Positions 31,799 through 50,970 of a stretch of DNA of 64,000 nt are shown here, piece after piece (positions within the stretch are counted from its first letter, which is position 1; each line of letters starts with the position of its first letter). The position numbers were made by a program, and so were the translations under genes. Origin of the DNA: a virus; IMG/VR virus record IMGVR_UViG_3300035138_000114. One strand, 5' to 3'. The notes under the pieces were generated by a model. It ran no database searches and was not told where the DNA came from. It worked only from the letters and a program-made list of their open reading frames with translations.

Positions 31799-31799
31799 G

Positions 31800-31905
31800 C
31801 TTTCAATCTCTAAAAAGAGTTTGGAGGAAGAGTCACACTTCCCACGCTGGACGTGAAATACGCCACATAGCCGGTCAGCCTATAGGCTTTCCGGGTACTT
31901 GTAAT
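31800..31905 (-). ncRNA. stand-alone natural single-guide RNA scaffold (copy A)
   Basis: 32-nt core identical to the tracrRNA; ends in CTCT-TTTT-AGAG-ATTGAAAG. Confidence 0.7.
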
Positions 31906-31909
31906 TCCC

Positions 31910-31939
31910 ATATTACATACAAGTAATATCTGTTGTCAA
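31910..31939 (-). promoter_or_regulatory. sigma70-like promoter of copy A
   Basis: TTGACA-18 nt-TAATAT, same layout as the tracrRNA promoter at 40441-40470. Confidence 0.6.
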
Positions 31940-32126
31940 GAAATTTTTTATCTTGCACGAAAACTTCCATTTTTTCTTCACCTGATATTGCCCGTCAATA
32001 GGAGAATTTGGGGCGATCTTTCAAAAATACCTTTACAGAATTGCTAAAGTTTTCTTGACAAAAGTTTAGCAAAGATTTATCCTCTTCTGTCTATGCCCTT
32101 AAAATGGGCTAACTCAGGAGAAAATT

Positions 32127-32978
32127 ATGGAAAATGCACTCAAAAAGGCACTTGTCAAAATAGGACAAAATAGGATTTTAAAGAATGTTCCCCGAATAAC
32201 GGAACATTTTACTGTCCAGCGAACTGCCCAAACTGAGATAAAAGTCACGTATATGGGGGATATTGCTTTTCGGGTTGCTTTCGATACAACGGCATCGCCA
32301 TTTATGCCCCGTGTGCTGTTTTATCTGGAAGATCCGGATATTCAAGCCGTCTTTTCCCCGGCGAAGGGGTATGACAAGGCAACAAACATCGTTTTTGAAT
32401 TGTTGCAGGCGATTGTCCAAATATCTCCATATCTCCTTGTCTATCGGGCATTAGAACAAAATCCGGTACAACTTCGGCAACAAGGAACACCGCAAGAATT
32501 ACGGCAGAAGTCAGACCGTATAAAGGCTTATCAGGAACGGATTGAATATTTAGCCGGGTTCTGGTTAAAAGATGCTTTTCCACAGACGGAGCCTATTTTA
32601 TTAGGGGAATGGCTATGGGCTCAAGATTGGCTCTCTCAAGACGGGCTTGACGTTGAACCAGAAGAAGGTTACGTATATGTCTTGAAAGTGGTTAATTTGT
32701 GGCAACGTTATACTAATACCGAATGGCGGTGTTGGATCGGGAAAACTCGGACAAAGAGAGAAGAGATGGAATCCCGATTAGCAACAATTTTCCCGGAGGT
32801 TGAAATCTCATTTCCAATATTTCGGGCGTACCGGATGTACGGGTTAGTGGAAGAAGGGTTATATCGGTTCTTCCAGTCGAAACATTTACAAGAAGGTTGG
32901 TTTGGTTTCAGAAAAGAAGATTATCAAATCATCTCCATTTATGAACCTAAATATGCCTTAAACGGGGAGCCTGAATAA
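32127..32978 (+). CDS. protein with C-terminal T5orf172/GIY-YIG-like domain
   Basis: GYVYVLK...IGKT...E..LY..F....L.EGWF. Confidence 0.5.
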   Translation: MENALKKALVKIGQNRILKNVPRITEHFTVQRTAQTEIKVTYMGDIAFRVAFDTTASPFMPRVLFYLEDPDIQAVFSPAKGYDKATNIVFELLQAIVQISPYLLVYRALEQNPVQLRQQGTPQELRQKSDRIKAYQERIEYLAGFWLKDAFPQTEPILLGEWLWAQDWLSQDGLDVEPEEGYVYVLKVVNLWQRYTNTEWRCWIGKTRTKREEMESRLATIFPEVEISFPIFRAYRMYGLVEEGLYRFFQSKHLQEGWFGFRKEDYQIISIYEPKYALNGEPE

Positions 32979-33382
32979 TGAATGATATGTCAACGTTGAA
33001 AGAGCTAAGTTTCCCTGATTTGATACGGAGACAGCGGGAAGAAAAAGGTCTGACAAAGAAAGAATTGGGCCATAAAACGGGTGTCAGTGAGCCGTTCATT
33101 AGTCGGCTTGAATCAGGGAAAATCGGGACACCGAAGAAACGAAAAGAATTTTTTCTGGAAATGGTGGCTGTGGAGTTAGAAATTCCGATGCCGATTTTAT
33201 TAGAAGCGGCGTTCAAATGGGATTTGCGGTTTCGTGGTGAACTATTGGAAAAGCTTTGTGCCATTGATGATAAGTTGACGGCAGAATTATTTAAGCTTGT
33301 CCAGGAAGCTGCAAACTATCAGGTAAAGGAAATGCTGTGCCAAAGCTGCTCACTTTTACGACAATATTTACCACACATTTAA
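32978..33382 (+). CDS. XRE-family HTH regulator
   Basis: IRRQRE.KGLT..ELG.KTGVS..FISRLE.G. Confidence 0.85.
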   Translation: MNDMSTLKELSFPDLIRRQREEKGLTKKELGHKTGVSEPFISRLESGKIGTPKKRKEFFLEMVAVELEIPMPILLEAAFKWDLRFRGELLEKLCAIDDKLTAELFKLVQEAANYQVKEMLCQSCSLLRQYLPHI

Positions 33383-33438
33383 AAATCTATCCGATATTTA
33401 GTTGACAAATAACTAATATCGTTATAGAATAACGAATA

Positions 33439-33624
33439 ATGATGAAGCCATTAAATTTGTCTGTCCCTGAACAGCAAAAGTCCAGATTAGAAGAAATTTG
33501 TTCTATAACGGGTTTTACGAAGTCTGAACTTGTGAGACAAGCATTAGAAGATTTCCTCCGAAAATGGTGGCAAGAACATCCTGAATATCAAAAACTAGGC
33601 ACGGATGAGCGGGGAAGGCAGTGA
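33439..33624 (+). CDS. ribbon-helix-helix regulator
   Basis: LNLSVP.....LE......G..KSELVR.AL..FL. Confidence 0.75.
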   Translation: MMKPLNLSVPEQQKSRLEEICSITGFTKSELVRQALEDFLRKWWQEHPEYQKLGTDERGRQ

Positions 33625-33730
33625 GTGGACGTGCCTGGATAGACACGGCAAGAGAAAGGAATAGAGTGGCATGGTAACGACAATAAAACTTCGTTGCCTT
33701 GCCGCTACAACTTATAATAAAGGCTATAAC

Positions 33731-34996
33731 ATGAATAAAGAAATATTACTTTCAGAAATTATTTATGAAGAAGAGTTTTATCCACGGTCGGGATTTGATC
33801 CCAAAGTCGTTGAGCAGTATCAAGAAGCCCTTGATCAACTTCCTCCGATTGTTATTACTCATGAAAAATATCTTGTTGACGGGTATCATCGGCTTATTGC
33901 CCATAAAGTCGAAAAACGAGAGACGATTTTAGTTGAAATTATTACACTTCCGAAAGAGCAAATCTTGTGGGAATCAGTGACACGGAATGCCGGACATGGT
34001 TATCAATTAAGCCGATCCGATAAAAGACGACTTGGACAGCAGTTTTATCGGCAAGGCAGAACGATTACAGAGATTGGTACTGTGTTAAGTGTCAGTGAGC
34101 GAACAGTAAATGATTGGACGAAAGAAGACCGCAAACGGAAGAACGACGAACGGAACGAGAAAATCTGGACCTTGTGGATGCAATGTTACACGGCAGATAA
34201 AATTGCAGCAGAACTTACAGAAACTTGTAAGATTACGCAACAAGCCGTATCAAATGTTATTAATACAAAAAAGAGCAAAGCTGCTGAAACTTGTAAAGCC
34301 CCTGAATCGGTGCAAACGGACACGATTTGGATGTTTCAACAGAATGATTCCCGATATGGCATGAAGTATCCTGGCCGTATTCCCGGCCAGATTGTTGAAA
34401 ACGTGTTATGGGCTTATACCGAGCCGTTTGACATCGTGATTGACCCGATGGCCGGTGGCGGCACCACGTTGGATGTCTGTAAGGCCATGTTGCGGCGCTA
34501 TCAGTGTTATGACCTTGCTCCAGTTCGTGATGACATAAAACAACATGATATAACTCAAGGGATGCCAGAAAATGCCGTAAAAGCAAATTTAATCTTCTTA
34601 GATCCTCCGTATTGGAAGCAAAAACGGGGAGACTATTCAGATGCGTCCACAAATCTGGCAAATGTATCCGTTAACGAGTATACGGTACAAATGAAAGCGA
34701 TTTTCAAGACGTGTTTCAAACAGCTTTCGCCACATGGACATTTAGCTGTGATTATCGGGCCAACACAAGAAAATGGAATCATTTATGATCATGCAAAGGA
34801 GTTTATGTTTTTCTTGGATACAATAGCAACACAAATTGCCCGGATTATTGTTCCGTACACAACCCAACAATTACAGGGATTCCAAGTTGCCGACGCCAAG
34901 AAAAACCGATATTTTTTAAAACGTCACCGAGATTTATTGATTTATCAAAAGAAATATGGATATTTGATAACTCTTTACGTATTCATTTGGCATTAA
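33731..34996 (+). CDS. ParB N-domain / HTH / N4-N6 DNA methyltransferase fusion
   Basis: FYPR, LPPI, LVDGYHRL; YPGRIP, VIDPMAGGGTT, IFLDPPYW. Confidence 0.85.
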   Translation: MNKEILLSEIIYEEEFYPRSGFDPKVVEQYQEALDQLPPIVITHEKYLVDGYHRLIAHKVEKRETILVEIITLPKEQILWESVTRNAGHGYQLSRSDKRRLGQQFYRQGRTITEIGTVLSVSERTVNDWTKEDRKRKNDERNEKIWTLWMQCYTADKIAAELTETCKITQQAVSNVINTKKSKAAETCKAPESVQTDTIWMFQQNDSRYGMKYPGRIPGQIVENVLWAYTEPFDIVIDPMAGGGTTLDVCKAMLRRYQCYDLAPVRDDIKQHDITQGMPENAVKANLIFLDPPYWKQKRGDYSDASTNLANVSVNEYTVQMKAIFKTCFKQLSPHGHLAVIIGPTQENGIIYDHAKEFMFFLDTIATQIARIIVPYTTQQLQGFQVADAKKNRYFLKRHRDLLIYQKKYGYLITLYVFIWH

Positions 34997-35085
34997 ATAA
35001 TCCTGAAAAAGTTTATTTGGGGTAACAAGTAAACTCCTGAATCGTTGCTTGACGGGCGTCAAGTGAGACACAGAAGGAGGCTTTT

Positions 35086-36906
35086 GTGGCTTTTCAAAAC
35101 TTTACACATGAATCATGGTCGGATACTGGGGGAATCCAGCGGATTTTATTACCGGTCGGCATTGTTGCCGCTGTTTTTTTCGTGGCATTTCTGATTATTT
35201 GGCTCTTTTGGAGTACTCCGGATCTCCCGGAATCGTATGAAGAAAAGATCGCCATTGAACACGGGAAAGCAATTCTGAAAAAAGCAGAAACATGGACAAA
35301 AATAGCTCCATTTATCCCGTATTTACAAGCAATCGGAACAATTACGGTAGTAATAGCAGTGGTATTCCTTCTCTATAAAACGGTTGGAATTCGGTATTTG
35401 ACAAGTACTCAAGTCAACCTTGACGGAACACAAATGGTAAATAGAATTCCGATTATCCGAAATACGTTACCCTTTATCCGTCAACTGGGGACGGCGCTGG
35501 TGGAAAATGCGTCCTCTGACCGGATCTTGAGAGCAAACGAGGAAGCCCGTGCGTTGGTCGAAACAACGAGTCATCTTGTAAAAGCATTTCCTCATCCTCG
35601 CTATGGGGCACGGGGACACTATAACATCCCGGCAGAAGTGTTGCCGTACCGACAGGATATTGCTCTGCCCCCACATGACGGGAATGACGGTGGAGGAGGA
35701 CAAGAAATTCTCTGGCTTAGAGATATTTGGAACGATATTCCTCAAAATCAGATTTGGGTTGGTGAGCCGGTAGTGACAGAACGGGCATTTCATCAACCGA
35801 TCAAAATCTTTTTGAAATTTTTTGAGGCGGAATCTATCGCCGTTGCCGGGCGGACCAATCAAGGAAAATCCGTTTTCGCCGGGGATTGTATTGTCCAGCA
35901 ATTACGTAACCTTTGCCGGATCAGCATCATTGACGAACATTATCATCCAATCGGACGGAATCCCCACGCTATGACAACCCGAATTGAAGGAGTCCTTCCT
36001 CTGGTGCATAGCACGGCTTTTCATGATGAGGTTTACGAAGGCAAAGGACTTGCTATTTTTCGGGAATTTGAAGCGGAATATCATCGCCGGGTTGCTTTAC
36101 CCCCTAGATCATTGGCAGACGCCCCGATCTGGTATCTCTGGTTAGAGGAATACTCTACATTTGTGGATACTTACAAAGATGAAGGCATTAAAGAAATTAT
36201 CGCCAACTTGCTCCGTGTTGGAAGGAAATTTGGATTAGCGTTAGGGCTAATTGCCCACGAAATACACAAACGCCATTTACCGTTTCATCAGTTAATCCAG
36301 AACCGGATTGTGTTCTCTTCAGATAAGGACGCGGCTCATCATTTGTTACAAAATAAGAAAATAGCTCAGGACTGCCTTGACATGAAAGCTGGTGAAGCCC
36401 GAATATTAAACACAGAACGGTATCCGAATCGTCCGAAGTTTCAAGGATACTATTATGAACCTAAAGAATTGAGAGAGCTATTGCCGGTACCTCAAGAAGT
36501 ACGGGACGCATACGAAGAAGATCAATTAGCCAAACAAAAAGAAACAATTTCCCTACAAATATCGAAAACTCAGGACATAACCGAATACTGGCGGATGGCA
36601 GAAAGTTCCAAGGTTGTTAGGGCAAGATTAAACGTCCTGAGTCAAGCAATTAATTCGGTTGTTTCTTACCCGAAAATTGAGGCAATGGGGAAAACAATTT
36701 TTAAGGAAGATTCTGTCCTGACATTAAGCCAGATTAAAAAATTTATGTCTCTTGATCCGAAAGTCAAGCCGAAAGGCGGATTTTCTACGGAGTTTATTCA
36801 ACAACTTTATAAGGTGCTTTGGCAGACAGATTGGTCGGCCCAGGTCGTATTTCCAGGAGATCCGATAGATGGCAATACCGTCAAAAAAGACAACACAGAG
36901 GCGTAA
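35086..36906 (+). CDS. membrane-anchored FtsK/HerA-like P-loop ATPase
   Basis: Two N-terminal hydrophobic segments; AGRTNQGKS Walker A; WLEE Walker B; GRKFG.L. Confidence 0.7.
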   Translation: MAFQNFTHESWSDTGGIQRILLPVGIVAAVFFVAFLIIWLFWSTPDLPESYEEKIAIEHGKAILKKAETWTKIAPFIPYLQAIGTITVVIAVVFLLYKTVGIRYLTSTQVNLDGTQMVNRIPIIRNTLPFIRQLGTALVENASSDRILRANEEARALVETTSHLVKAFPHPRYGARGHYNIPAEVLPYRQDIALPPHDGNDGGGGQEILWLRDIWNDIPQNQIWVGEPVVTERAFHQPIKIFLKFFEAESIAVAGRTNQGKSVFAGDCIVQQLRNLCRISIIDEHYHPIGRNPHAMTTRIEGVLPLVHSTAFHDEVYEGKGLAIFREFEAEYHRRVALPPRSLADAPIWYLWLEEYSTFVDTYKDEGIKEIIANLLRVGRKFGLALGLIAHEIHKRHLPFHQLIQNRIVFSSDKDAAHHLLQNKKIAQDCLDMKAGEARILNTERYPNRPKFQGYYYEPKELRELLPVPQEVRDAYEEDQLAKQKETISLQISKTQDITEYWRMAESSKVVRARLNVLSQAINSVVSYPKIEAMGKTIFKEDSVLTLSQIKKFMSLDPKVKPKGGFSTEFIQQLYKVLWQTDWSAQVVFPGDPIDGNTVKKDNTEA

Positions 36907-37501
36907 TACGGGAAAAGCTACGTTTAAAAACGGACAGTTAATTACCCGAAAATGCCGTGTTGCGGGGATTATAGACGGAGATACAATAGATGTCATGTTT
37001 GCCGTCCCCATATATTGGGGTTTTGGAAAGCGGCTGATCCGCGAACGGATCAGAGTCTGGCCTATACAGGCTCCTGAGAAAGGGGAAACTGGGTTTAAAG
37101 AGGCAACGGATCTTCTCGGGTATCTCCTAAGCCTGGGAGACGAACTCCGGATCACGTATTATTCGGAAGGGAACAAACAATGGAGAGGTGCTTTCGGGCG
37201 GTTGCTCGGTATTATAACAGTCGAAACTGGTTGGTTTCGTCAAATTGACGTATCCGAGGCAATGCTTAAGGCGGGGTATGCCAAGCTTTATCACGCCCCC
37301 GATCTTATTGCGCCTGAAGCGTTACAACGGTATCGGCAAGTAGAGCAGGATGCCGCCCGTCAAAAGGTCGGATTATGGGGATTTTCGGATGTCAAAACCG
37401 CTTTTCCCCACACGTCTAATTTAGGGAAAGTCGTAAAGACCGTTTTTAAAGGGTTCTTGATCGGGCTGGCTATTGTAATTATCGTTTGGTTGTTTACATG
37501 A
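36869..37501 (+). CDS. thermonuclease (SNase-like) with C-terminal TM segment
   Basis: IDGDTI, IQAPE, GRLLG, L..GYA, A...K.GLW. Confidence 0.88.
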   Translation: MAIPSKKTTQRRNTGKATFKNGQLITRKCRVAGIIDGDTIDVMFAVPIYWGFGKRLIRERIRVWPIQAPEKGETGFKEATDLLGYLLSLGDELRITYYSEGNKQWRGAFGRLLGIITVETGWFRQIDVSEAMLKAGYAKLYHAPDLIAPEALQRYRQVEQDAARQKVGLWGFSDVKTAFPHTSNLGKVVKTVFKGFLIGLAIVIIVWLFT

Positions 37502-37725
37502 CATATCAGGAACGAAAACAAGCACGGAAAGAACACTATTTGAAACATGTTTACGGATGGAGACTCCGCCCGTGTTCCGCATGTAGCGGGTCAGGAGTAT
37601 ATGATAACACAGGGAGCCCGCCGTGTGGGGCTTGCGATGGTACAGGGAAAGAACGGTATCCTGGCCCGAAAGCTCTTGCATTACGGGAACAAGGGAATAA
37701 TGGAAGTAGAAGAAAAACGATTTAA
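37498..37725 (+). CDS. small DnaJ-type zinc-finger protein
   Basis: CSACSGSG ... CGACDGTG. Confidence 0.55.
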   Translation: MTYQERKQARKEHYLKHVYGWRLRPCSACSGSGVYDNTGSPPCGACDGTGKERYPGPKALALREQGNNGSRRKTI

Positions 37726-38218
37726 AGGGATTATTGTTCCGGTAACATTTTTAACCCGGTTTCTGGCGAAACCTGAGCAGGAAAAATTTTCAATTCCCGT
37801 TATACTGAACATTCCGAAAGATGCAACCGTGAAACAGGTATTTTGGGATTATAGTAGAGACGGGTTAGTTATTTTTTATGAACACCCGTCTTTTGAGGCA
37901 ATCGGCCCAACAAATCCGATTCCCATAGAGCCACTTGAGGTTACGATACTTGACCTTAAAGAGCTTGTAAAAACTGAGGCATCGGAGCTTTTCACAAGGA
38001 TGGAATCTTTACGGTCAGGTCTGACCGTTATTGGAGAAGAATTCGAGAATATGACCGTTTATCGGGTAGGTAATGATCCGGTGAGCAAAGAACAGTTTGA
38101 TCAATGTCAATCGCCAATTATCGGGGTAACAATCGGAAATACATTCTATCCTGCAAGCCAGATCGCCTTAGTAAAACGGGATGAAACAAACAGATTCTTG
38201 AAGGATTACAGATTATAG
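37700..38218 (+). CDS. hypothetical protein
   Basis: ATG at 37700 after AAGGGA. Confidence 0.5.
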   Translation: MEVEEKRFKGIIVPVTFLTRFLAKPEQEKFSIPVILNIPKDATVKQVFWDYSRDGLVIFYEHPSFEAIGPTNPIPIEPLEVTILDLKELVKTEASELFTRMESLRSGLTVIGEEFENMTVYRVGNDPVSKEQFDQCQSPIIGVTIGNTFYPASQIALVKRDETNRFLKDYRL

Positions 38219-38517
38219 CGAAGTATTTACCTGAAGGTGATAACGGGGAATTTAGTGCCACTCATGATTCTATAGCAGCGGGATCATCCTGTATCGGGGC
38301 TGGCCCGGAATTCACGAAAATTTCTACAGAAGACCATGCCCGACTGAAGGTGTTAGGCTGGTACTATAATGCTAAATACGAGGCATGGTGTCATCATTGT
38401 TGACTCAATAAGTCATCCAGTCGGGAATCTTCAGGGATTCCACAGTTAAACATCTGGTTAAAATCACGGGCAAACTTTTCTGTTAAGGCATGGTGTTGCC
38501 CGTCGTCAAGATAAAAA

Positions 38518-38889
38518 TCATTCTCCCTCCTGGTTTTCTTCTTGTAGCGGGCACCAATAGTTTCTCAAGAACTGGGCAAAAGTTGTCGAAATACAGAAGT
38601 TAATAACAGGCGAAGCCGGGATGGTTCTCATCTGTTTAACCTCTCCCCCAGTTTTATTAAAGGTTTCAATGTCAAATCGGGAATGTGCCCGCCGATTTGT
38701 TAAGGAAATGACTCCTAAATGTTTCCATGTAAATTTAGGAGATTCAAACAATAGTTCCACAAGTGCTTGTGAAAAAGCCCCGATTACCTTCTTGACCGTC
38801 CCTCGGGGAAGGCCAGTTTTTTCCATTATCCTGTCAACTACCGGTTTACTTGCTTCCCATTTTTTGGGATAAATTGGAATATCCTTCAT
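38518..38889 (-). CDS. HU/IHF-like DNA-binding protein
   Basis: V..I..KTGL....V..VI..F...L.E.L, LG.I....R, IPA...I.F pattern. Confidence 0.65.
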   Translation of the reverse strand: MKDIPIYPKKWEASKPVVDRIMEKTGLPRGTVKKVIGAFSQALVELLFESPKFTWKHLGVISLTNRRAHSRFDIETFNKTGGEVKQMRTIPASPVINFCISTTFAQFLRNYWCPLQEENQEGE

Positions 38890-39515
38890 AATGTTTTATT
38901 CCTTTCTTTCGCTTTACTTTCAGTCTCTTTCAGAGATTTCTTTCTTTTGCGTAAACGGTGTAACCCGCTGTCCTCGATACGTCTTACCCATTCACGGCAA
39001 ACTGAAAAAATCCGGCTTATTTGTTCTAACGTGTAGCCTTTATCCTCTCCAAATGAAGACAAAAGCCGATACCGGGCTAAAAGGCAATAAATCTCTCTGT
39101 TAACTCCGGGAGTTTTTTGCCAGTATTGACAAGTCCGGTAAGGACACTGTTCTTTCCGAAATTCGGCATGGATTTTCTCAATGGGTAATAATAAAATTTC
39201 ATCTCTCACCGCCCGTGAACACTTGTAAATAATAGAAACCCATGTCCGGTTTTCCCGTTTCATCAAAGGTTCTTTCTGTCCGAAGTTCAGAGCAAAAAGA
39301 TCAACATAAAGCACATTGAAAGAAGTATCTAAAGTAATAGGAAGTTTCCCTAGTCTAAACGGATTATATTGATCTTTGGATAATTCAATCGTGTCTTGTG
39401 TTGTATAGTCAATGATTATGTAATTTTGGAAGCTCAAATGTGTCCGTGTCGGGAGAGAACATATTTCTTGGTTTCTATTAAGAATCATTTTAAAGAAGTA
39501 TCCAAAGTCTTTCAA
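38886..39515 (-). CDS. sigma70 region-4-like HTH protein with Cys motif
   Basis: YTLEQIS.IFSVCREWVRRIE..GL.RLR; CPYRTC..W...C; start may be ATG at 39488. Confidence 0.7.
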   Translation of the reverse strand: MKDFGYFFKMILNRNQEICSLPTRTHLSFQNYIIIDYTTQDTIELSKDQYNPFRLGKLPITLDTSFNVLYVDLFALNFGQKEPLMKRENRTWVSIIYKCSRAVRDEILLLPIEKIHAEFRKEQCPYRTCQYWQKTPGVNREIYCLLARYRLLSSFGEDKGYTLEQISRIFSVCREWVRRIEDSGLHRLRKRKKSLKETESKAKERNKTL

Positions 39516-40128
39516 TCCCTTTCAGAGATTTATTAGCTTTTCTACATGGAAATAAACCGGGAACGCCTAACAGACCAATATCTTTCAATCCCTTTCAGAG
39601 ATTTATTAGCTTTTCTACGCACGTTAAGGAGAAAATTATGAACCAATTACTTCAACCTTTCAATCCCTTTCAGAGATTTATTAGCTTTTCTACCAAATCT
39701 ATAATCTGGAATCTGCTATCTATCAGCGGCTTTCAATCCCTTTCAGAGATTTATTAGCTTTTCTACTTGGGCGTCCTGGCGAGGGCGCCTTTTTTATGCC
39801 CCCTTTCAATCCCTTTCAGAGATTTATTAGCTTTTCTACGCGATTGTTGACGGGCAAACAGGGGATATTCTGGTACTTTCAATCCCTTTCAGAGATTTAT
39901 TAGCTTTTCTACTCAATGACGGGCTATTCCCGTCAACGGTATGGGACTTTCAATCCCTTTCAGAGATTTATTAGCTTTTCTACTCAACCGGGCTTCCTGG
40001 ACAGTTAACGAATCCCGGTCCTTTCAATCCCTTTCAGAGATTTATTAGCTTTTCTACAGCATTACAAGCAGAATTTGCCGGGTATGAGAAGCTTTCAATC
40101 CCTTTCAGAGATTTATTAGCTTTTCTAC
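39509..40128 (-). CRISPR. CRISPR array: 9 identical 37-bp repeats, 8 spacers of 34-38 bp
   Basis: Repeat on - strand GTAGAAAAGCTAATAAATCTCTGAAAGGGATTGAAAG; + strand starts 39509, 39582, 39657, 39730, 39803, 39876, 39947, 40021, 40092; orientation inferred from the ATTGAAAG 3' end. Confidence 0.98.
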
Positions 40129-40335
40129 TGCTTGTTTCTATCTGCCCGGTATCACGTAAGTCAATTTCCTGTTTCCGAGCACCTGGCACAAATCTCTAAA
40201 AATGCTGTCAAAGAACTATAAATTTTGTCTTTTTAAGGGTACAAATGCCTTATATATAGTCTCCGAGCAATCATTTTGTCTTAGCCATGTTTGTAGGCAG
40301 ATACAGAATGTTGCTTTGTCAGCATCCCCTGCTCG

Positions 40336-40436
40336 GCAATCTCTGAAAGCGTTCGGAGGAAGGGAAAACCCTCCCACACTGGACGTGAAATACGCCACAT
40401 AGCCGGTCAGTATCATACTTTCCGGGTACTTGTAAT
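40336..40436 (-). ncRNA. tracrRNA (copy B)
   Basis: Anti-repeat CTTTCAGAGATT (40338-40349) complementary to repeat AATCTCTGAAAG; promoter TTGACA(40465-40470)-18 nt-TAATAT(40441-40446). Confidence 0.8.
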
Positions 40437-40466
40437 TCCCATATTACTTGTATGAAATATCCGTTG

Positions 40467-42302
40467 TCAAGAAATTTCTGATAATTTTATTATTTTAGGT
40501 GAGCGTAAACAAGCAAGGAATTGGCTACGATCCCCTTGCCAATTTCCGCTTTTTACGGCGATATTAGCGGCTCCGTTACAATCGGCGTTAACATGAGTCC
40601 CGTTATTTGTCTGGTATAGTCCTCGTTTCCTGCGTTTTTTTAATGATTTGGAAAATGTATGGAGTTCGTTGCTTCCATCATACGTAGGAATCTCCATATA
40701 ATCCAAAAAAGAACATAAAGATGTGAAACTTTCTTCATGTTCAATATAAGCTATTCCTTCCGGCTCGCAGGCATATTTTAGATAATTCCGTAACTGTAAA
40801 AACGGGATTTGCACAAAATTTTGAGTATTCCGTTTCCCTATATTTACACCTTGTTTCCATCCGACGTTCACCCCAACAACAACCGTATTGATGTGATGCT
40901 TAACGCAGTAATCTACAATATATCTGGCAACCTGTTGCATGATATATTCAATTTTGGCATTCCGGCGACGGGTGATTCGGTAAAGCTGCCGTGACTGTGG
41001 AAATTTGTGAGATTGAGTCGAAAACGGGACAACCAATTGTTGCCATTGCTTCTGTTCATCTCCTGTTAAATGACATGCTAAAATGAGTTTTTGCGCTGTG
41101 GCAAAAGACTGTCCACAAAGTTGTTTATACCGTAATAATAGGTCATCAGGAAGAACGGTTTGTAAAAGTTGGATACTCTCTTCAGTTACACTATATTTTG
41201 AACGAGGATCTTGATCTGCCATACATTCCCGTAATCGGGCACATTCTTTATTCCAAAACCAATTGATTGATTTGACAGAAGATCCTTTGAATAAAAACGC
41301 GAATGGAGTCTCCATGTCCACACAGGCCGCAAGATTATTAACCCCAAGATCAATTCCCATTATCCTTATGCTGTCAGGCGTTGTAGTTGTCGGAACAGAT
41401 GCTTGGTATGTCAATGATACCGAAAACTCTTCACTCCGAAATTTCGGAGTAATTTGAAGTTTCCGAATATCATTAAATTGAAGCCACTCAGGGATCGGGA
41501 TACAAATTGGTGTAAAGCCTTTATCTTTAAGCGTTTTTGAAAGGCTTAGGCGTAATGTTCGGTCATCAACTTTAACGAACCCATTCCCTATTTCGGCGAT
41601 AATTCGTCCGAATGGTGGAGCTTGATCACTTCTATGGTTTTCGCCTAAATAATGCTGGTCTTTTTTATATCCTGGAATTCGTGGAGCATCACGATACTTC
41701 TTCTTTTTTTGCTCTGCCCGAAGCTGTAAGAAAGAAAGGTGGTGCTTCTGCAAATATTTCCAGATACTTTTATCATAATTCCGTATATCTTTAACAGCTT
41801 GATCTACCATATAATGGGCGGTTTTGCTAGATATTTCAAAGTGAACCCGTGTAGACTCCCGGTGTCGAAGCACTTTTGAATCTAACGTATAGGTTGTCAG
41901 AAACCTATCGTAATATTGGCAAGATTCAAAGATTTTCTCTCCATACACGGTCATTTCAGACCGTGATAAACACTCTTTGAGGTGTTCTTCAAACTCTGAA
42001 CGGAATACCTTGCGCTTGGTAATTGGACGCAATTTAGCCCGTATTTCTTCAGGAACCGCCAGTTGTGCGATCTTATTTTTTGACAATGAATATCGGAGTG
42101 TTTCAAACTGCTCTTTACATGGGCATACCAGGCAATCAGGGCAGTCAGGGATTATTGACGGGTTAATATAATGCTGCCGACAACACCATAATGCCGCATT
42201 ATAGATTCTTGCGGCATGGATACAGAGTAGTGTTAAATGTTCCCGGTCTTGTTTCGACAGATTTGTTAAGGCAATTTTAATGGTTCTTGCTGCTAATTCC
42301 AT
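40467..42302 (-). CDS. compact TnpB-derived type V CRISPR effector (Cas12-like, 611 aa)
   Basis: RuvC-I IMGIDLGVNNLA; RuvC-II position VVVGVNVGWKQ; NFVQIPF..L..L.Y; EESFTS; RuvC-III NADCNGAANI; adjacent tracr and array. Confidence 0.85.
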   Translation of the reverse strand: MELAARTIKIALTNLSKQDREHLTLLCIHAARIYNAALWCCRQHYINPSIIPDCPDCLVCPCKEQFETLRYSLSKNKIAQLAVPEEIRAKLRPITKRKVFRSEFEEHLKECLSRSEMTVYGEKIFESCQYYDRFLTTYTLDSKVLRHRESTRVHFEISSKTAHYMVDQAVKDIRNYDKSIWKYLQKHHLSFLQLRAEQKKKKYRDAPRIPGYKKDQHYLGENHRSDQAPPFGRIIAEIGNGFVKVDDRTLRLSLSKTLKDKGFTPICIPIPEWLQFNDIRKLQITPKFRSEEFSVSLTYQASVPTTTTPDSIRIMGIDLGVNNLAACVDMETPFAFLFKGSSVKSINWFWNKECARLRECMADQDPRSKYSVTEESIQLLQTVLPDDLLLRYKQLCGQSFATAQKLILACHLTGDEQKQWQQLVVPFSTQSHKFPQSRQLYRITRRRNAKIEYIMQQVARYIVDYCVKHHINTVVVGVNVGWKQGVNIGKRNTQNFVQIPFLQLRNYLKYACEPEGIAYIEHEESFTSLCSFLDYMEIPTYDGSNELHTFSKSLKKRRKRGLYQTNNGTHVNADCNGAANIAVKSGNWQGDRSQFLACLRSPKIIKLSEIS

Positions 42303-42315
42303 AAAGCTATCTCCT

Positions 42316-42600: not shown

Positions 42601-42736
42601 TTCTTACCCGTGCGGCGGCTTTCGCCTTTGATTCTGTTTTTGAGCGGCCTTCGATCCGCCCGGTTCTCTTATTAACTATAGCCCAGTTCCCTCTTTTCCG
42701 GGATTTAACAGGTCGGTATCTAACTACAACTGGCAT
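42542..42736 (-). CDS. small basic hypothetical protein
   Basis: AAGGA RBS, 64 aa. Confidence 0.45.
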   Translation of the reverse strand: MPVVVRYRPVKSRKRGNWAIVNKRTGRIEGRSKTESKAKAAARVRNGIAAGTFRPKTIRRQKGG

Positions 42737-42771
42737 GATAAAAATGTCCTTCGCAGATTAAAAATTTATAG

Positions 42772-42875
42772 CTCTGGCGCTCAGAATACCCTCCAAAATC
42801 GTTTGAAATTTCTTCCGAATATCTTCATAGGGGTTGGCGTTCCGAGTCCTTAGAATTGAAATCTGGTCGCCATTT
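42772..42875 (+). repeat. R2 dispersed repeat (degenerate)
   Basis: CTCTGGCGCTCAG...CATAGGGGTTGGC...TCCTTAGAATTGAAAT. Confidence 0.45.
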
Positions 42876-42919
42876 TTACGTCTGGACATTACTATACCCG
42901 AAACCTGGGCTTTCGTCTA

Positions 42920-43348: not shown

Positions 43349-43507
43349 TATTTGCTCCTTTCTTTCGCCGCCTTGAGGCGATTCCGTATGTTTCTTTGGT
43401 GACTTTTTTTCTGATTTCTCGTAATAGTTCCCGGTAAGACTGTTCCTCTCCGATAGATAGTGTTTCAGGCATCTTCTCTCCCATCATTTGGTTGATTTCG
43501 GCAAATC

Positions 43508-44041: not shown

Positions 44042-44580
44042 GTTTTCACTCCTTATACTCAATACGGTTAACAAAAATTCGGCTATGGGTAAGGGGTTCG
44101 ATAACAAGGCTTTCCATCAGGACTTTCCCTTCGTGTTTGCAAGTCATCCCGCCTTCAATTTCAAGTGTTCCGTCTTTCTTGAGCCTGAGATGAAAAAGAC
44201 ATTCCCCAGTGTCCGATAAAATTGAAAGTCTTTCCATTTCTTGTTTCGGGACATCTTTGCCCGTCCTAATTCCTTCTTGTATGAACATAATTACCTCCCG
44301 TTGTTTGGGATATTACTCCCATCCTTCATCTTGAAAAAAATCACTTTCCCAAAAGATTTCTTTCCAGGCTACAATAGTGCCCACTCCACGGGTTCCTGCT
44401 CTTCCATACGGAGTAATCCAGTGCATTCCATTCCAGCAAGCAATTACGGAAACCCCGTTTTTAAAGAGAGCCTGGACTTGACGGGAATCATCTGGCACAT
44501 GAATTTCGGCATTATATTCTTCTTCTCCCCGCAGTTTGGGTATTTTCCCCCGGGCTTCTTGGCTTACACGTCCCTCCCTG

Positions 44581-45441
44581 TTAACAGTCGGAAGCAATAT
44601 GTTGGTGTTTCCACGCCGCATAATCACCGACTGGAAAGTCTGTTAATCGTTTGAAGTGAACTGCCTCAAGGATATGTTCACTCAGAATCTTTTGACTTTG
44701 GGCTAAATTAGCAATAACCCGTCCGATTTGACAAACTTGTTTGACAACAGTCTCAGAAAGGTCAAAACGTTCTTTAGAAAGTTGTAAGAATTTTCCAGCA
44801 TCCAGATCTAAATCCCCGCCCCTGTAGGAAGCTGTTAACATCCCGTCAATACGTTTTAACATGTCTTGGTGATCTTTTAATCGGAATTCCCGCATAGCGG
44901 CGGTAAACCTGTTTTCTGCCGTGTTCTGAGGAGATAATCCGCCAACTTCGACCATAAGATGGAACGCTTCCTGATTTTTCCAGAAGTCTTTCCGGGCGAA
45001 TTTTTGAGAAATGACCACTGCCGGTAATTCGTATAAATGGGCATATTGCGCCAGAAGCCACGCATAAGTATGGAGTTCTGTAGGAACCAATAAAAGTGAA
45101 AGTTTTCCAGCAACGGCGACTTCGACTGCCCGTTTTCCGGCATAAGTCCCGACAATATTCAACCAAACCGCCGTCTTCAGGTCATCAAACTCTATAGGTT
45201 GAAACATTAACGGTTGAATTCCCAAAACATCGGCAGGATCAGCCATATGGTGGTCTTGCATATAGACCCTTGCCTTTGAATATGTCGGTTCTTCATAACA
45301 AAGAGATTGAGGGAAACTATCTTTATCATAGCAGTATCCCCGCCAGATATGAGAATTCGTGAACTCCGGATCAATTTCTTCCCGGAGCAAAAAGTGGGCA
45401 CTCATAAGCATACCTCCATTTAGCTTTTTAAGGGCTTCCAC
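44581..45441 (-). CDS. ComM/YifB (Mg-chelatase-related AAA+) derived protein, degenerate
   Basis: IVG...GKRAVEVA.AG...LLL; L.RID; LS.....I.RVIA.L..S..I...HI.EA..F; no intact Walker A. Confidence 0.6.
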   Translation of the reverse strand: MEALKKLNGGMLMSAHFLLREEIDPEFTNSHIWRGYCYDKDSFPQSLCYEEPTYSKARVYMQDHHMADPADVLGIQPLMFQPIEFDDLKTAVWLNIVGTYAGKRAVEVAVAGKLSLLLVPTELHTYAWLLAQYAHLYELPAVVISQKFARKDFWKNQEAFHLMVEVGGLSPQNTAENRFTAAMREFRLKDHQDMLKRIDGMLTASYRGGDLDLDAGKFLQLSKERFDLSETVVKQVCQIGRVIANLAQSQKILSEHILEAVHFKRLTDFPVGDYAAWKHQHIASDC

Positions 45442-46883
45442 TGTTTTGTTTCGACTAACAAAAGTTCCGCTTTAAATAAGTCCGGATCTTCTTCTCCGTC
45501 CCACAAAACAAGAGCCCACCATCTATCCTTGACGAAAAAATTCCCGAAATATTCTCCTTCTGCATCCGCTTTATCAGTATTTGGTTTCCCTTTGCAGCGG
45601 AGCGTTTCATCGGATTCAAAGTCAAAATCTATTGGTAACGGCATTGTTATCCTCCTGATGGTCTTTTTCGGAATTGGCTGCGTTCCAAAAGTCAACCATC
45701 TCCTGTTCATGTGGCGGGAAAACTCGGATCTCTACACAAAGCTTATCGCATAGGTGGTAAATTTTTCGGATGTCTATGTCATGCGGCTGTCCGATCGCGG
45801 GTTTTCTCCCACAATGTTTACAGGGTAATAGGTTATACTTCATGTTCCTCTAAATATCTGGATACTACGGGATTCATGGGGTTTTCATCCACATAAGGTG
45901 AACCAGGTAGTCCGTACCTCTCCCGTAACATCCGGTATTCATGTTCAAAGTCCTGTAATGATTGAATGGTTGTCGGAATAAAACGAATTTGCCCGCCCCC
46001 CACTCTTGAGAAAAGGATCATAATCGTATTCCCGGAACGCGGGCTAACATCTAACCCAATCCCGGATTGTCTCAAGACAAGTTCCTCAAGACGGGCGATC
46101 CTGGCTTCAAAATCGTTTTCAACTTCAATTCGACATCGCCTTCCGTTGTCAACTTCTACCTTCCAATGGGGTAACCACCAGACCTCTTTTAAGACTCTTC
46201 TGATATACCAGAAGACACACCGGAGCGTTATTCTTCCTCTCCAATTTGTTGTTTCCTGTTTCATGAAATTCGGCGCAAGGAGACCCGGTTTTTTAAAGCC
46301 GAGTAGTTTACGGTGTATTGATAAAGTAAACCCAATCTTGAGAGATGTTCCACGTCTTTTGTATTTTGAACAGTCTCAAGAAGTAAAGCCGACTTGACTT
46401 TTCACAAACGACATAAAAAGTCCCGTTATTCTCCCAAAAATAAAGGAGATTGTATTCAGCCTCAGAAGAAAACCACTCGTTTAAAACTGCCCAGGGCTCT
46501 TCAGGCATCCCGCCACGCGGGGCATCTTCGCAAAACATCCACATTAATAGCCACCTTCCCCTTCATCGTAAATATCGGTCTCCCATTCTCCCGCAACCAG
46601 GAACTCTATAAGCTCTTTTGCCCGGTCTCGGTCAGCCGCATGGACTGAAATCTTGAAATGAAATTCATCCGTCCCTTCTGTATAAGGGAAACCAGAAACT
46701 TCAAAAGTAAACTCATTCATGCCTAACAACGGGTGTCATCATCATGGAAAAGAATGATAATTTCGGTACCATCTTCTTCCTGAATCAATTCCCGCCCAAT
46801 ATTTTCGATTAGAAACGGGTTTAACGGTGAAATCGGGTAACACCCGACAGAAAATACACAAAGCACTGTTAAAAACCATTGTT

Positions 46884-47249
46884 TCATATAGCTCCTCCTC
46901 CTGAGCCAAACGCCCCGGCAGGAAGCTCCCAATGACGGGCAAGCGCCTCGACATAACCTTCTGTAACTTGCCAGTCAAAAAACGGTTTATGAAACTCTTC
47001 TTTCCCGTCTACTGCCTGATGCCATAACCATATTTTGTGAGCAGGGACGCCTAAATCCATAATATGGAGAGTCTGCCCGGTACTGTCTTTTCCCCCGCTT
47101 ATCATATCAATAACCATATCATACTCATCTAACGGGAGAAGCTCCGGGGTCGGATCAGGTTGTATAAAGAAAGAAAGTTGTTCCATTATCCGCTGAAAAT
47201 CTCCCTTAGAATCCCGGCAATTACGCAAACGGCAACTATCACTAAACAA
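46884..47249 (-). pseudogene. PAPS-reductase-family N-terminal fragment
   Basis: SGGKDS PP-loop, LWHQ.VDG, FFDW..TE.Y..A.A; ends early. Confidence 0.6.
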
Positions 47250-47568
47250 ATCATAATGCCTTTTGTTATCATTCTATTTACCCGGTATATGGTCTACAAA
47301 CGGTATATTCATACGTGTTCTCGTCTGTTTTGACAAATTTATAATAAGAATCTAACCCGAAGGGGAATTGGCTTGCCCCATTATAGCGTCCATTTGGGGC
47401 TTCGTGTTTTGCTGGATACAAAAATGTTACACAGAACCGCTTGACATCCTTTTCTGGAAGGTCACTAACAATTTTGTATCGGTAAATGGAGTCGGTATAT
47501 TTCCGTATTTGCCCGTAATGTAAGACTTCCCATTCTATTTTATGCTGTTTATTCATAACTCTCCTTTT

Positions 47569-47644
47569 TGGAGATTGGGGCGGGATTTGAACCCGCGATA
47601 AGGGATTTGCAGTCCCCTGCCTTAAGCCACTTGGCGACCCAATC
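47569..47644 (-). tRNA. tRNA-Cys(GCA)
   Basis: GATTGGG/CCCAATC acceptor stem, U discriminator, encoded CCA, anticodon loop CT-GCA-AA, GGTTCAAATCC T-arm. Confidence 0.93.
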
Positions 47645-48136
47645 TTAGTTTGCAAGAACACATTCCGTATCCGTGACCTGCCAGCGGGCATCATGCCAGC
47701 CGACATTTTCTGGTTTCATATCCAACGTAGGCAACCCTTCAGCCTCTATCTGGACAATAAGCTTTTCTAATTGAAGCAATCTAATTTCTCCTATCCGTTC
47801 CGCATACGGGAACACATCAAAAATAAAATCATTTCGGTAAAACGGCCCAAATAACGGCTGTAATACATGCTCAGATTCAGGAATTTCCCACCCGACATAA
47901 TCATATTCTCTGAACTTTAAGGTAGCAGGTGTCCCGTCATTTAATCGAATAGAGAACGTAATGGTTTGATGTCCCATGCCTTCATATTCTCCAAGCCGTC
48001 CCCCGAATTCCTCTAATACATCACCGATTATTCCGCCTAACGCCCAAAAACGGTCAGGATCACGACCTAACTGTCCTTGCCACGTCTCTTCATGGCAGTC
48101 TAATAAATCCATCTGTAGGTCATGTAACGTTCCCAT
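47645..48136 (-). CDS. minimal protein-kinase-like fold protein
   Basis: G.G...TF, ATLKF, DMKPEN catalytic-loop-like motif, W.VTD. Confidence 0.45.
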   Translation of the reverse strand: MGTLHDLQMDLLDCHEETWQGQLGRDPDRFWALGGIIGDVLEEFGGRLGEYEGMGHQTITFSIRLNDGTPATLKFREYDYVGWEIPESEHVLQPLFGPFYRNDFIFDVFPYAERIGEIRLLQLEKLIVQIEAEGLPTLDMKPENVGWHDARWQVTDTECVLAN

Positions 48137-48836
48137 GTTTCTTGAAAGCTCCTTCTTGCCCGAATAGACTATAGATATACATGATCGCCTTATATCGGGC
48201 ATCTCGTTCAGTAGTTTCAAAATCATACGCCGACAAATCAATAGAGTGGGGCTTGACGGCTTTATCGTTTCCGAAACAATCCCAACCTTCTCTCTTTTCA
48301 CGGGCGAATAACTCAAGATGAGGACCAGGGAATTGTTCTGCATAGGCGTAAATGTCGGGCGGTTTGCGGCTATGCACTTTTGTCCTTTTTGCTACCAAAA
48401 ACAAATCATAATCCCAAATTAGCCCCGCTGATTGGGAATGTGGGCACGGAGCATAACCACGGCGGGCAATGATGACAGGCTCTGTTGAACCACGAATCCA
48501 GTGCCCGTTTCCGTAAGCAAAGTCAAGATCAAGCTTCCCGAATAAATCTATTTTCGGGCGTCTTGTTGTCTTCACCCACGGGAATCCGGTTTTCGGATAA
48601 AAGCCCCATGCCCACATCGTCAGAAGGCAGTCAACTAACATTGCCCACATTCCCCAGGCGATAAGAACAGCCTGATCCTCTGCCAGATTAATCACCGGTA
48701 AGGCGCATATATCGGGAGTCGGCATTGTCCCGTAATGATTCTTAGCCGCTCCCCGTCCTCCTTGCTCGGGCTGCGGCTGCCACGGTGAATCACAGAGGAT
48801 CGTTTTATATCGTTTTAATGTGGTCATACTTGCCAC
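48120..48836 (-). CDS. MT-A70 family adenine methyltransferase
   Basis: ILCDSPW, Y.TM, WGF..KT..PWVK, G.WIRG.TE, HSRKP, LELFAR..R.GWD.FGN. Confidence 0.88.
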   Translation of the reverse strand: MASMTTLKRYKTILCDSPWQPQPEQGGRGAAKNHYGTMPTPDICALPVINLAEDQAVLIAWGMWAMLVDCLLTMWAWGFYPKTGFPWVKTTRRPKIDLFGKLDLDFAYGNGHWIRGSTEPVIIARRGYAPCPHSQSAGLIWDYDLFLVAKRTKVHSRKPPDIYAYAEQFPGPHLELFAREKREGWDCFGNDKAVKPHSIDLSAYDFETTERDARYKAIMYIYSLFGQEGAFKKHGNVT

Positions 48837-49384
48837 ATCGGTTGAAGTAAAAGCCCGCCAGGACTTGCACCTTTGGTCTTTTCTTCAACGTTGTTTGCCA
48901 TAAGTCTCATCATGTTTAAAGAAACGGTTGTTACTTCTGAAGTCCCAACAACTGGGTATTGGTGCTCTCCTTTAAGAGAGTCTTTTGGAACTGCGATAAC
49001 CCCAAAGACCATAAACAGGTCTTTGTCATCTCCTTCTAACCCGGCATTTTTAGCGGCCATGCCGGTTTCCCGGACAATAAGTTGTCCTGTTACTTGGTGT
49101 TTTTGGCTGTTTTTCATTTTCTCTCCTTTGTTTGCGTTCCTTTTTTAGGGAGCGGTTCGCCGTTCCCATGTCGGATGACGGGTTCCGGTCACCCGTTCAT
49201 GATAATTTCGATTTGGATAATGTATTGTTGCCCAAAACGGGGGAGACCCCCACCAGCTATACCGAATAAGGAAATGATGGTTATATAAGTGATACGGCTT
49301 GACAAATCGAAAAAAAGACATATACCCCCTCCTTTCTAAACAGTGTAAAAATGAAGTATGATAATGTCAAGTTATTTTTTTATA

Positions 49385-50254
49385 TTAAACCGGATAAAGT
49401 TGAACCATTTTGATAAGTTCCCCGTCATATCGTTCATCCAGGGCACAGGTGTCTATTTCTGCAAATTCAAAGAACGCTTTCCCTTTTGTATCGAACCGGA
49501 GATCAACAGTACTGCCCGCCGCATGGATAAGTGGAATGTCATATTTCATTTCTTTCCGAGTCAATCTCTTATCCACATGTCTATGACCGAATAGAAGGAT
49601 GTCTACTTTTCCTGCAATAAGGTCTTTAAACGCCCGATCATCCTTCAACTTCAAAAAGAAGTTGTAATAAAATGGATGATGGTGAAGGAAAAGTACCGTA
49701 TAAAGGTTCGGACGGTCAAACTCTTCTAAATATGCGGCGATTTCTGCCCGTTGTTGCTCTCCTATCTCTCCTTGAGCAAAAAGCACGTCAAATCCGCCTA
49801 ATTCACCCGCCATTGAGTCAACTGACATAAAGACTACGCCGTTATCCGGATCTCCTGGGTCTACTATTGTATAAACAACGGGGAAGTCAGGACAGGAAGT
49901 GCTATTCATAGCATAAAAACCAAATCGTTCTAAGGCGATTCGTATTGCCCAGTTACCTTTAAACCCGTAATCATGATTACCTGGGCAGACATACACAACA
50001 AAGCCCACATTTCGGAGATTACGGAGTAGTTCACGGAGTCTCTGGTATTGATTTTGAGTGCCGCTTTCCACAATATCCCCGGTAATGATGATAATTGGGA
50101 GCATCTTAAATTCCTGATCTTCAGGAATCTTCCCGTTTTCAAGACCATGATCAAGTCCTGCATACATCTTAATCAAGCCCTGTACCAGCCACTCACATTT
50201 TAGCAAGTTCCATCCTTGCCCGATATGTAAATCCGACAAATGAATTATTTTCAT
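49385..50254 (-). CDS. calcineurin-like metallophosphoesterase
   Basis: HLSDLH, TGD, PGNHD, HH, GHRH. Confidence 0.88.
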   Translation of the reverse strand: MKIIHLSDLHIGQGWNLLKCEWLVQGLIKMYAGLDHGLENGKIPEDQEFKMLPIIIITGDIVESGTQNQYQRLRELLRNLRNVGFVVYVCPGNHDYGFKGNWAIRIALERFGFYAMNSTSCPDFPVVYTIVDPGDPDNGVVFMSVDSMAGELGGFDVLFAQGEIGEQQRAEIAAYLEEFDRPNLYTVLFLHHHPFYYNFFLKLKDDRAFKDLIAGKVDILLFGHRHVDKRLTRKEMKYDIPLIHAAGSTVDLRFDTKGKAFFEFAEIDTCALDERYDGELIKMVQLYPV

Positions 50255-50802
50255 TGCTTTTGTTCCTCCTGATCTTCTTCTGAATCTCCAAACCCCACGA
50301 TCTTCAACCATTCTTCGGCAGCCGTATGAAGTGAAGATGAAGAACAGATAAAAGGATTTTCACGATTTAACTGTTGACAAGCTTTTTTTGCTAACTGAAC
50401 ATGGAACGGAAGAATTGTTCCGCCAGGACGTCCTTCAAAGTTCTCAATTGCCCCGTGAAGTAACGCCATAGACCGGGCAGTCGGTTTTGTAAATCCGACT
50501 CCAAGAAACCATTTATACCGCCAGAATGTCCCGGCATTCTCTTGTTTCCAGACTGGATCATCTCTATGTGGTTTGATAAAGAGAAAAAGCAATGCCGGTT
50601 GACAGAGCAAGTCATATACCCAAAATCCCTGATGGCGGCAGAAACCAGGACGATAACATCCCCGGAAAAGTTCTCTGAATAATTGCCGTCCTGTTTGTCG
50701 CCAACGATTTCGGTTTTTGACACTACATTCAAGGGCGTTTCCAGCAATTTCAAGAAACTGGTTACGATAAAATTCTAACGTGTCCCATGTGTTCTTTTTC
50801 AC
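50251..50802 (-). CDS. hypothetical protein
   Basis: GAGG RBS with GTG start. Confidence 0.5.
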   Translation of the reverse strand: MKKNTWDTLEFYRNQFLEIAGNALECSVKNRNRWRQTGRQLFRELFRGCYRPGFCRHQGFWVYDLLCQPALLFLFIKPHRDDPVWKQENAGTFWRYKWFLGVGFTKPTARSMALLHGAIENFEGRPGGTILPFHVQLAKKACQQLNRENPFICSSSSLHTAAEEWLKIVGFGDSEEDQEEQKQ

Positions 50803-50834
50803 GGCATTTCCTCATCTTGTGATAGGGGAAGCTT

Positions 50835-50970
50835 CTTTCAATCCCTTTCAAAGGTTCTTTATTTGGCAATCTCTGAAAGCATTCGGAGGAAGGGAAAACC
50901 CTCCCACACTGGACGTGAAATACGCCACATAGCCGGTCAGCTTATAGACTTTCCGGGTACTTCTTATCCC
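50835..50970 (-). ncRNA. stand-alone natural single-guide RNA (copy C: tracr fused to repeat 3' half)
   Basis: Nearly identical to the tracrRNA, then a 17-nt loop, then TGAAAGGGATTGAAAG (exact last 16 nt of the CRISPR repeat). Confidence 0.8.

Follow-up and report, generated by a model that had tools for sequence, protein, structure and literature searches.

Why would a phage that carries a trans-activating CRISPR RNA (tracrRNA) gene and a CRISPR array also carry dispersed copies of the same guide-RNA scaffold in which the two RNAs are joined? The question is raised by a single virus record of 132,054 base pairs (bp), IMG/VR IMGVR_UViG_3300035138_000114, from which a window of 64,000 nucleotides (nt), the reverse complement of bases 2942-66941, was analyzed; coordinates are those of the window unless given as genome positions. 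The initial annotation of this window described three scaffold copies, A, B, and C, and all are present as described, but an nhmmer search brings the total to exactly four (~82 nt each) in the genome, the fourth, D, lying outside the window. It also held that split and fused forms of one scaffold coexist in a single genome, and this is what we find: A is a minimal fused form, C is a long fused form, and B is a split form accompanied by the array. The explanation that we favor, and regard as moderately probable, is that the split system has been re-fused into natural single-guide RNAs working with the same Cas12 protein.

The split locus is, judging from its sequence, a compact type V CRISPR system that bears a tracrRNA and has no adaptation genes in the phage; no Cas1 family match exists in the phage genome, where cas2 was not searched for. 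The effector gene (40467-42302, minus strand) ends at a promoter-like site, TTGACA-18-TAATAT (40441-40470, minus strand), the -35 box of which overlaps the cas stop codon. Next comes scaffold B (40335-40440, minus strand), a tracrRNA of ~105 nt with the conserved fold and a 12-nt anti-repeat, CTTTCAGAGATT (40349-40338), which is a perfect complement of the repeat and forms with it a duplex of 12 bp (-19.2 kcal/mol). A leader of ~200 nt separates tracrRNA B from the array (39509-40128, minus strand), which comprises nine identical 37-nt repeats ending in ATTGAAAG, eight spacers, and trailing sequence. A wetland metatranscriptome contig of 289 nt is 100% identical to positions 40085-40373, that is, the 3' half of tracrRNA B, the leader, and the first repeat. 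This suggests that the region is transcribed, with the qualification that RNA contigs show neither strand nor ends and that DNA carry-over is possible.

Cluster look-ups yielded two contigs from a sibling phage, L004 and L005. L004 encodes an effector 97% identical to the one described here, an orthologous tracrRNA, and the same repeats, and has an extra fused copy, E, upstream of the cas operon; its sequence stops inside its CRISPR array. L005 spans the C region of the relative. The L004 array (L004:5795-6486) has nine spacers, none of them shared with the array at 39509-40128. Siblings with identical repeats and 97% identical effectors thus have no spacer in common, which implies fast spacer turnover via host adaptation proteins or array replacement.

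How were the joined copies put together? In all of them the anti-repeat of the tracrRNA is whole or almost whole, and after it comes sequence from the 3' side of the repeat, of a length that differs from copy to copy. In scaffold A (31800-31909, minus strand), the anti-repeat variant CTCTTTTTAGAGATT leads through a GATT common to the ends of the anti-repeat and the repeat, which constitutes the junction, into the last 5 nt of the repeat (GAAAG), and the terminal stem is a 4-bp hairpin inside the anti-repeat. In scaffold C (50835-50970, minus strand), the tracrRNA with its anti-repeat continues into ~29 nt of diverged repeat, including bases that pair with nothing, and the terminal stem has 9 bp and a long loop. 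Scaffold D (genome 104634-104510, on the strand opposite to A-C) represents a third kind of fusion, CTTTCAGA-GATT-TCTGAAGG-AAATTGAAAG, with a repeat-derived piece of 18 nt, a terminal stem of 8 bp, and a loop made of the last four anti-repeat bases, GATT. It is flanked by open reading frames (ORFs) of 248 and 81 amino acids (aa), upstream of an SbcC-like gene. E has ~16-20 nt of repeat and a stem of 7 bp. A, C, D, and E all terminate in ATTGAAAG, the 3' end of the repeat, which is lacking from tracrRNA B.

The upstream regions differ as well. A is preceded by a promoter-like TTGACA-18-TAATAT (31910-31939, minus strand) duplicated from the B locus together with the final bases of the cas gene, so that this copy includes the tracr promoter and the cas stop codon. 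C and E retain only the -10-like part of the promoter, and D has neither box. At the other end, the candidate guide of A (31780-31799, minus strand) is antisense to the 3' end of a plus-strand ORFan (30881-31798), that of C (50815-50834, minus strand) overlaps the ribosome-binding region of the next ORF (50802-50251), and that of D lies over a start codon. Scaffold C and its guide lie within a 266-nt block (50815-51080, minus strand) that is missing in relatives and has an imperfect direct repeat, CAAGA(A/T)GAGGA, at both sides.

Do these copies behave as RNAs? The hairpins listed in the initial annotation are found exactly on the minus strand. Hairpin 1, inside a CCGG/CCGG stem, reads AGCC-TATA-GGCT in A, AGTA-TGA-TACT in B, and AGT-CTATAA-GCT in C; hairpin 2 reads GGAAG-TGTGACT-CTTCC in A and GGGAGGG-TTTT-CCCTTCC in B and C; and the invariant core with its TTTCA is confirmed in the scaffold sequences. 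For comparison, the 82 nt shared by six copies (A, B, C, and D of this phage, with E and the B orthologue of L004) were assembled into an alignment, A2. The fold consists of the CCGG/CCGG stem that encloses hairpin 1, a small GGCG/CGUC hairpin with UUUCA in its loop, and hairpin 2, and RNAalifold independently predicts the same three helices. In A2, 93.9% of cells are paired, versus 41-61% when the 3' partners are slid. The sense strand pairs 107 of 114 cells and the antisense strand 94 of 114, because G-U pairs fit only the minus strand of the window. Two-sided changes are observed at four pairs (G-C/A-U, C-G/U-A, A-U/C-G, and G-C/C-G). The covariation score of these six related sequences is 0.182, a value reached by only 4 of 500 shuffles (mean 0.122), while slid partners score 0.02-0.09. 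The pairing-preserving changes that had been read as selection on RNA structure are borne out in these six copies.

This pattern also bears on whether the copies could be nonfunctional duplicates that recombination has left over from the tracr locus. Such debris would fit the lack of an own promoter in C and D, guides that resemble ordinary flanks, and the ready loss of copies between siblings. The differences, however, strongly avoid the core, and the stems change compensatorily. Variable columns account for 19 of 22 in the hairpin tops and 9 of 60 in the remaining core (Fisher 3e-9), and in each dispersed copy the departures from the tracrRNA spare the core far more than an even spread over the columns would (binomial 7e-6 for A against B, 8e-5 for D against B). 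Flanks of the copies show no similarity, yet within the 60 core columns no more than 1-7 positions are different. Since the differences are concentrated in the hairpin tops and avoid the core, the sequences indicate that the dispersed copies are constrained RNAs under structural selection rather than decaying debris, and the latter reading seems very improbable to us.

One further element proposed for the fold is a pseudoknot between the TTTCA of the core and the TGAAA of the terminal sequence, which is plausible by analogy with the pseudoknots of Cas12 tracrRNAs (bioRxiv 10.1101/2025.01.20.633832). Both 5-mers are invariant in all copies, so that covariation neither supports nor refutes their pairing, and an alternative 3-bp helix, C(A/G)A with the tail UUG, competes for the pseudoknot bases.

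In which direction, then, did the forms evolve? The initial annotation saw a snapshot of the transition from an omegaRNA to a tracrRNA/crRNA pair. Our comparison points the other way: the fused copies most likely arose by repeated re-fusion of the split system and are not relics of its origin. The anti-repeat is kept even where it is unpaired in cis, as in D, where GATT serves as the loop. Four different junctions are better explained by independent deletion or recombination events than by one ancestral form, and the tracr promoter and cas stop codon carried by A indicate that this copy was taken from the cas-linked locus. Scaffold C looks young. It differs from B at 6 of 82 positions, about as much as B differs from its sibling orthologue (5 of 81), and the two phages have identical repeats, the sibling already having an array. 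Moreover, the presence of C and E varies between siblings. L005 lacks C, as do runs X2 and X3 (both of which show the joint 50814/51081), and E is present in L004, X2, and X3 and replaced by 34 nt in the phage studied here. In run X2, the orthologue of A departs from it past the scaffold, on the downstream side; no homologues of the ORFan next to A were found, so that this locus could be compared only in part.

The reverse order, with the fused copies as surviving ancestral omegaRNA-like forms from which B and the array evolved, has arguments of its own. The omegaRNAs of the nearest TnpB relatives end in a stem, UUUA, the returning stem, (A/G)AUGUCAAAG, and the guide, and the fused copies share this layout, with a terminal stem-loop, a tail of ~9 nt ending in AAAG, and then the guide. 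Copies A, D, and E are also farther from B (14-19 of 82 positions) than C is and so could be old, and sequence similarity by itself does not set a direction. We nevertheless judge this order unlikely. It sits poorly with an anti-repeat in every copy, with the distinct junctions and the cas-locus parts of A, and with copies that come and go between siblings having the same array; C, in addition, is as young as the phage split and still has unpaired repeat bases. For the re-fusion that we prefer there is a precedent: the joining of a tracrRNA to half a repeat into a re-emerged omegaRNA, followed by duplication, has been proposed for the sigma-linked dCas12f/TnpB lineage (PMC10691335; PMC13472631).

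Could the effector use such RNAs? The 611-aa protein is TnpB-derived and Cas12f-like, matching the Pfam families OrfB_IS605 and Cas12f1-like_TNB, and was aligned with 9 and with 57 homologues. Its RuvC-II motif is rearranged and its zinc finger absent, but D318, E523/E524, and D574 are retained; in the 58-sequence alignment, D318 and D574 are invariant and E524 is nearly so. The nearest relatives are TnpB proteins of 400-440 aa with ~50% identity over the RuvC part, compared with which the effector carries three insertions. The entire TnpB clade, effector included, has Gly at the canonical RuvC-II position and no zinc finger, and its conserved glutamate, in EESYTS, lies farther downstream, a pattern that agrees with the 'RuvC-II rearranged' TnpB branches (PMC10691335). 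The best PDB profile match is AsCas12f (E = 1.5e-13), and Foldseek also aligns the effector with AsCas12f (E = 2.5e-10). Given the retained residues and these nearest matches, it is probably an active, unclassified Cas12f-like type V effector.

The N-terminal/REC insertion (residues ~45-185) is cysteine-rich (..PDCPDCLVCPC..) and is modeled with a predicted local distance difference test (pLDDT) score below 50; phage Cas12p has a thioredoxin-binding insertion of which it is reminiscent, although no similarity is shown. Two other assignments of the system were considered. The GAAAG end of the repeat and a nearby tRNA had suggested Cas12k and a CRISPR-associated transposon (CAST). Cas12k gives no sequence or profile match at E <= 1 and is absent from the top 50 fold matches, and no Tn7-like genes (tnsB, tnsC, tniQ) occur among the annotated ORFs around the locus; this assignment is rejected. 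A nuclease-dead, sigma-associated dCas12f is unsupported because the catalytic residues of the effector are intact.

How the re-fusion might have proceeded, and what it would produce, can be outlined as follows. Deletion or illegitimate recombination would fuse a copy of the tracrRNA gene with the 3' portion of a repeat, with a new junction each time. The product would be an omegaRNA-like molecule consisting of the scaffold, a terminal stem, ATTGAAAG, and a fixed guide supplied by the adjoining DNA, and selection on RNA structure would maintain it. A would be transcribed from its own promoter, and C, D, and E by read-through from upstream genes. We infer that the fused RNAs most likely load in trans into the same Cas12 and act as hard-wired guides.

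Several points weigh against this scheme. No RNA run is listed for A, and the transcription and protein binding of A, C, and D are a proposal. None of the fixed guides matches the phage genome a second time, the species-representative genome collection contains no match to guide A, and the spacers of the two arrays find no target among INPHARED phages, with nothing above chance. What look like guides in A, C, and D may be no more than flanking DNA, since each lies over coding or ribosome-binding sequence of the phage. The alignment holds only six sequences, all of one lineage. Finally, the order of events rests on parsimony. Had B and C exchanged sequence by gene conversion, C could look more recent than it is; with the dating possibly blurred in this way, and with A, D, and E older than C, we infer the direction rather than demonstrate it. 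As regards the array itself, three spacers searched against IMG/VR and the spacers compared with the phage and the sibling contigs gave no protospacer; their targets may be missing from the searched databases.

A different function is suggested by the only match obtained when guides and spacers were compared with the phage and the sibling contigs. All 36 nt of the E guide recur unchanged in the E-less allele of this phage (42884-42849), with the 5' flank ...AATGTC. The copies might thus be guide-only homing or exclusion satellites: Cas12 would cut sibling genomes that lack the insertion, after which the element would be copied in during repair, or the rival phage kept out. TnpB homing and the homing endonucleases of phages would offer parallels. 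Three of three comparable loci are polymorphic between siblings, and the phage holds five canonical TnpB elements without TnpA. The GTC of the flank conforms to GTN, the protospacer adjacent motif (PAM) of Cas12k and Cas12p, two effectors with repeats that end in a similar way (bioRxiv 10.1101/2025.01.20.633832). A GTN flank, however, arises by chance in 1/16 of cases, and GTC as a PAM is presumed only. The C-less allele of L005 is without the first 15 nt of the C guide. At the empty site of E (42849-42918, minus strand), 34 nt at 42885-42918 replace the ~133-nt fused scaffold of L004, so that the site is a replacement and no clean insertion; empty alleles cover the C and E sites and not A or D. 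We consider this function doubtful. If true, the scaffolds would be selfish or competitive phage elements of a new class, non-autonomous and consisting of RNA only, that use a phage Cas12 in trans.

The positions of the copies allow yet another function, in which their main role is not that of guides: they would supply additional tracrRNA or act as cis-regulatory or titrating elements. They might pair with array transcripts, or bind Cas12 on mRNAs and thereby affect downstream ORFs or the level of free effector. The anti-repeat of A still pairs with the repeat in trans, in a 14-bp duplex of -16.3 kcal/mol versus -19.2 for B. C, D, and E are intergenic, in sense orientation, and directly upstream of ORFs, with the 'guides' covering a ribosome-binding site in C and a start codon in D and with E preceding the cas operon in L004. 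On the other hand, an exact guide-adjacent ATTGAAAG tail is kept in all fused copies, which an extra tracrRNA would not need, and RNA-level regulation by Cas12f-like proteins at such sites lacks support. We find such a role quite unlikely.

The phage also encodes five further, canonical TnpB genes with a normal RuvC-II Glu and a CxxC zinc finger. They are located at genome 71511-72692, 92953-94119, 123709-124827, and 1-820, and at window 20746-21654 (plus strand); the window copy is truncated and one other copy spans the contig ends. Their omegaRNAs end in ..CCCAGGTGCTTCAGCCCTGGGAGGATGTCAAT, and no Y1 transposase (TnpA) is found in the phage genome. Scaffolds A, C, and D were considered as RNAs of these genes, an assignment that fails because the canonical TnpBs lie elsewhere and have a different omegaRNA end.

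Is there a known system to which the re-fused guides correspond? The sigma-E-associated dCas12f, or 'Sigma-TnpB', lineage (PMC10691335; PMC13472631) comes close: there too a tracrRNA is fused to the 3' part of a repeat with retention of the repeat's 3' end, guides are duplicated to several sites, and a vestigial or full array coexists in some loci. Our system differs in its retained catalytic residues, its array of many spacers, and its lytic-type phage genome, as well as in fused copies that are spread over ~90 kb with four junctions and no genomic targets found. Its effector, too, comes from a different clade, in which RuvC-II is rearranged and the zinc finger is missing. As to sigma linkage, a sigma-70 region-4 ORF (sigma70_r4; 38886-39488, minus strand) follows the array, starting 20 nt past the last repeat; it is given as context only, no link to the scaffolds being shown. 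The guides have no second match in the genome, and the L004 contig compared ends within the array. The adjacency of array and sigma ORF recalls the sigma-linked dCas12f, although the effector here is not nuclease-dead. The last repeat and the trailing sequence together form a promoter-like TTGAAA-17-TAAAAT, and an HU-like ORF (38518-38889, minus strand) comes after the sigma-70 region-4 ORF.

The fused copies resemble the omegaRNAs of the RuvC-II-rearranged TnpB relatives (~50% RuvC identity) in having a scaffold, a terminal stem-loop, a short tail ending in AAAG, and a guide of flanking DNA. Unlike those, A, C, and D have no tnpB beside them, no transposon ends, and no TnpA, and the terminal stems of the fused copies are made of anti-repeat and repeat sequence. 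Cas12f (type V-F, e.g., AsCas12f) offers the best profile and fold match and likewise combines a miniature effector with a tracrRNA and a repeat:anti-repeat duplex; the present effector is set apart by its 611 aa, three insertions, relocated RuvC-II glutamate, missing zinc finger, phage location, and natural fused guides. The phage miniature type V systems, Cas12j, Cas-lambda, and the Cas12p 'hacker', are also phage-borne compact Cas12 systems with an array and no adaptation genes, and in Cas12p, too, a tracrRNA is used; the repeat there measures 37 nt, and its 3' end takes part in a pseudoknot. None of the three gives a significant sequence match, however, Cas12p ranks 50th by fold, and dispersed fused guides are not reported for them in the literature searched. 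With Cas9, a molecule resembling a single-guide RNA (sgRNA) also exists beside a dual-RNA system, in the form of the tracr-L version of the tracrRNA (Workman et al. 2021, cited in PMC13472631). According to the account given there, tracr-L is an alternative transcript of the tracr locus that represses the cas promoter, whereas the fused RNAs described here are separate genes at other loci. No partial target near the cas promoter was detected for the fused guides.

Beyond this lineage the scaffold leaves no trace in the collections searched. The core pattern has no match elsewhere in IMG/VR or the JGI metagenomes; a loosened pattern gives nine matches, all to an unrelated GC-rich coding motif, and no distant homologues. 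The 3' 21 nt of the repeat have no match in species-representative genomes or IMG/VR, and an Rfam scan of the window returns one tRNA and nothing else. A phage-encoded tRNA-Cys (GCA) lies at 47569-47644 (minus strand); loose ends of the read layout indicate that other organisms of the same samples have related tRNA sequences. The public runs that bear the phage are wetland, marsh, and salt-marsh metagenomes. CheckV estimates the genome to be 95% complete, and it encodes a gpA-type terminase, ParB, a 5'-3' exonuclease, and DNA methylases, along with an SbcC-like protein, a sigma factor, and an HU-like protein.

Two other features of the region were observed in passing. An element of ~90 nt, CCAAATTTCGATTCTAAG..TCGGAA..CAACCCCTAT, a short loop, ATAGGGG, and GGCGTCTCTCAGAG, occurs in eight copies, at window 42827-42866, 51568-51607, and about 17788-17827 and at five places elsewhere in the genome. 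It is mostly intergenic, and one copy overlaps the distal part of the E guide region; a structured RNA, a terminator, and a regulatory site of the phage are all conceivable. Two wetland metatranscriptome contigs of 151 nt map to window 46101-46393, where 143-aa ORFs overlap on both strands; besides these and the contig at tracrRNA B, the 19.6 kb examined has no RNA contigs.

What the scaffolds would provide is a natural series of sgRNAs for one miniature Cas12, with repeat:anti-repeat stems of 12 bp (in trans), 9, 8, 7, and 4 bp. Each copy is apparently kept by selection, and the series offers direct guidance for minimizing the guide RNAs of compact editors. The collapse of a tracrRNA/crRNA pair into a single guide, earlier inferred for the nuclease-dead, sigma-linked Cas12f, can evidently occur repeatedly and recently, here in an apparently nuclease-competent system whose array persists. 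If the fixed guides do act against sibling phages or host genes, they would represent a new phage use of CRISPR-derived machinery.

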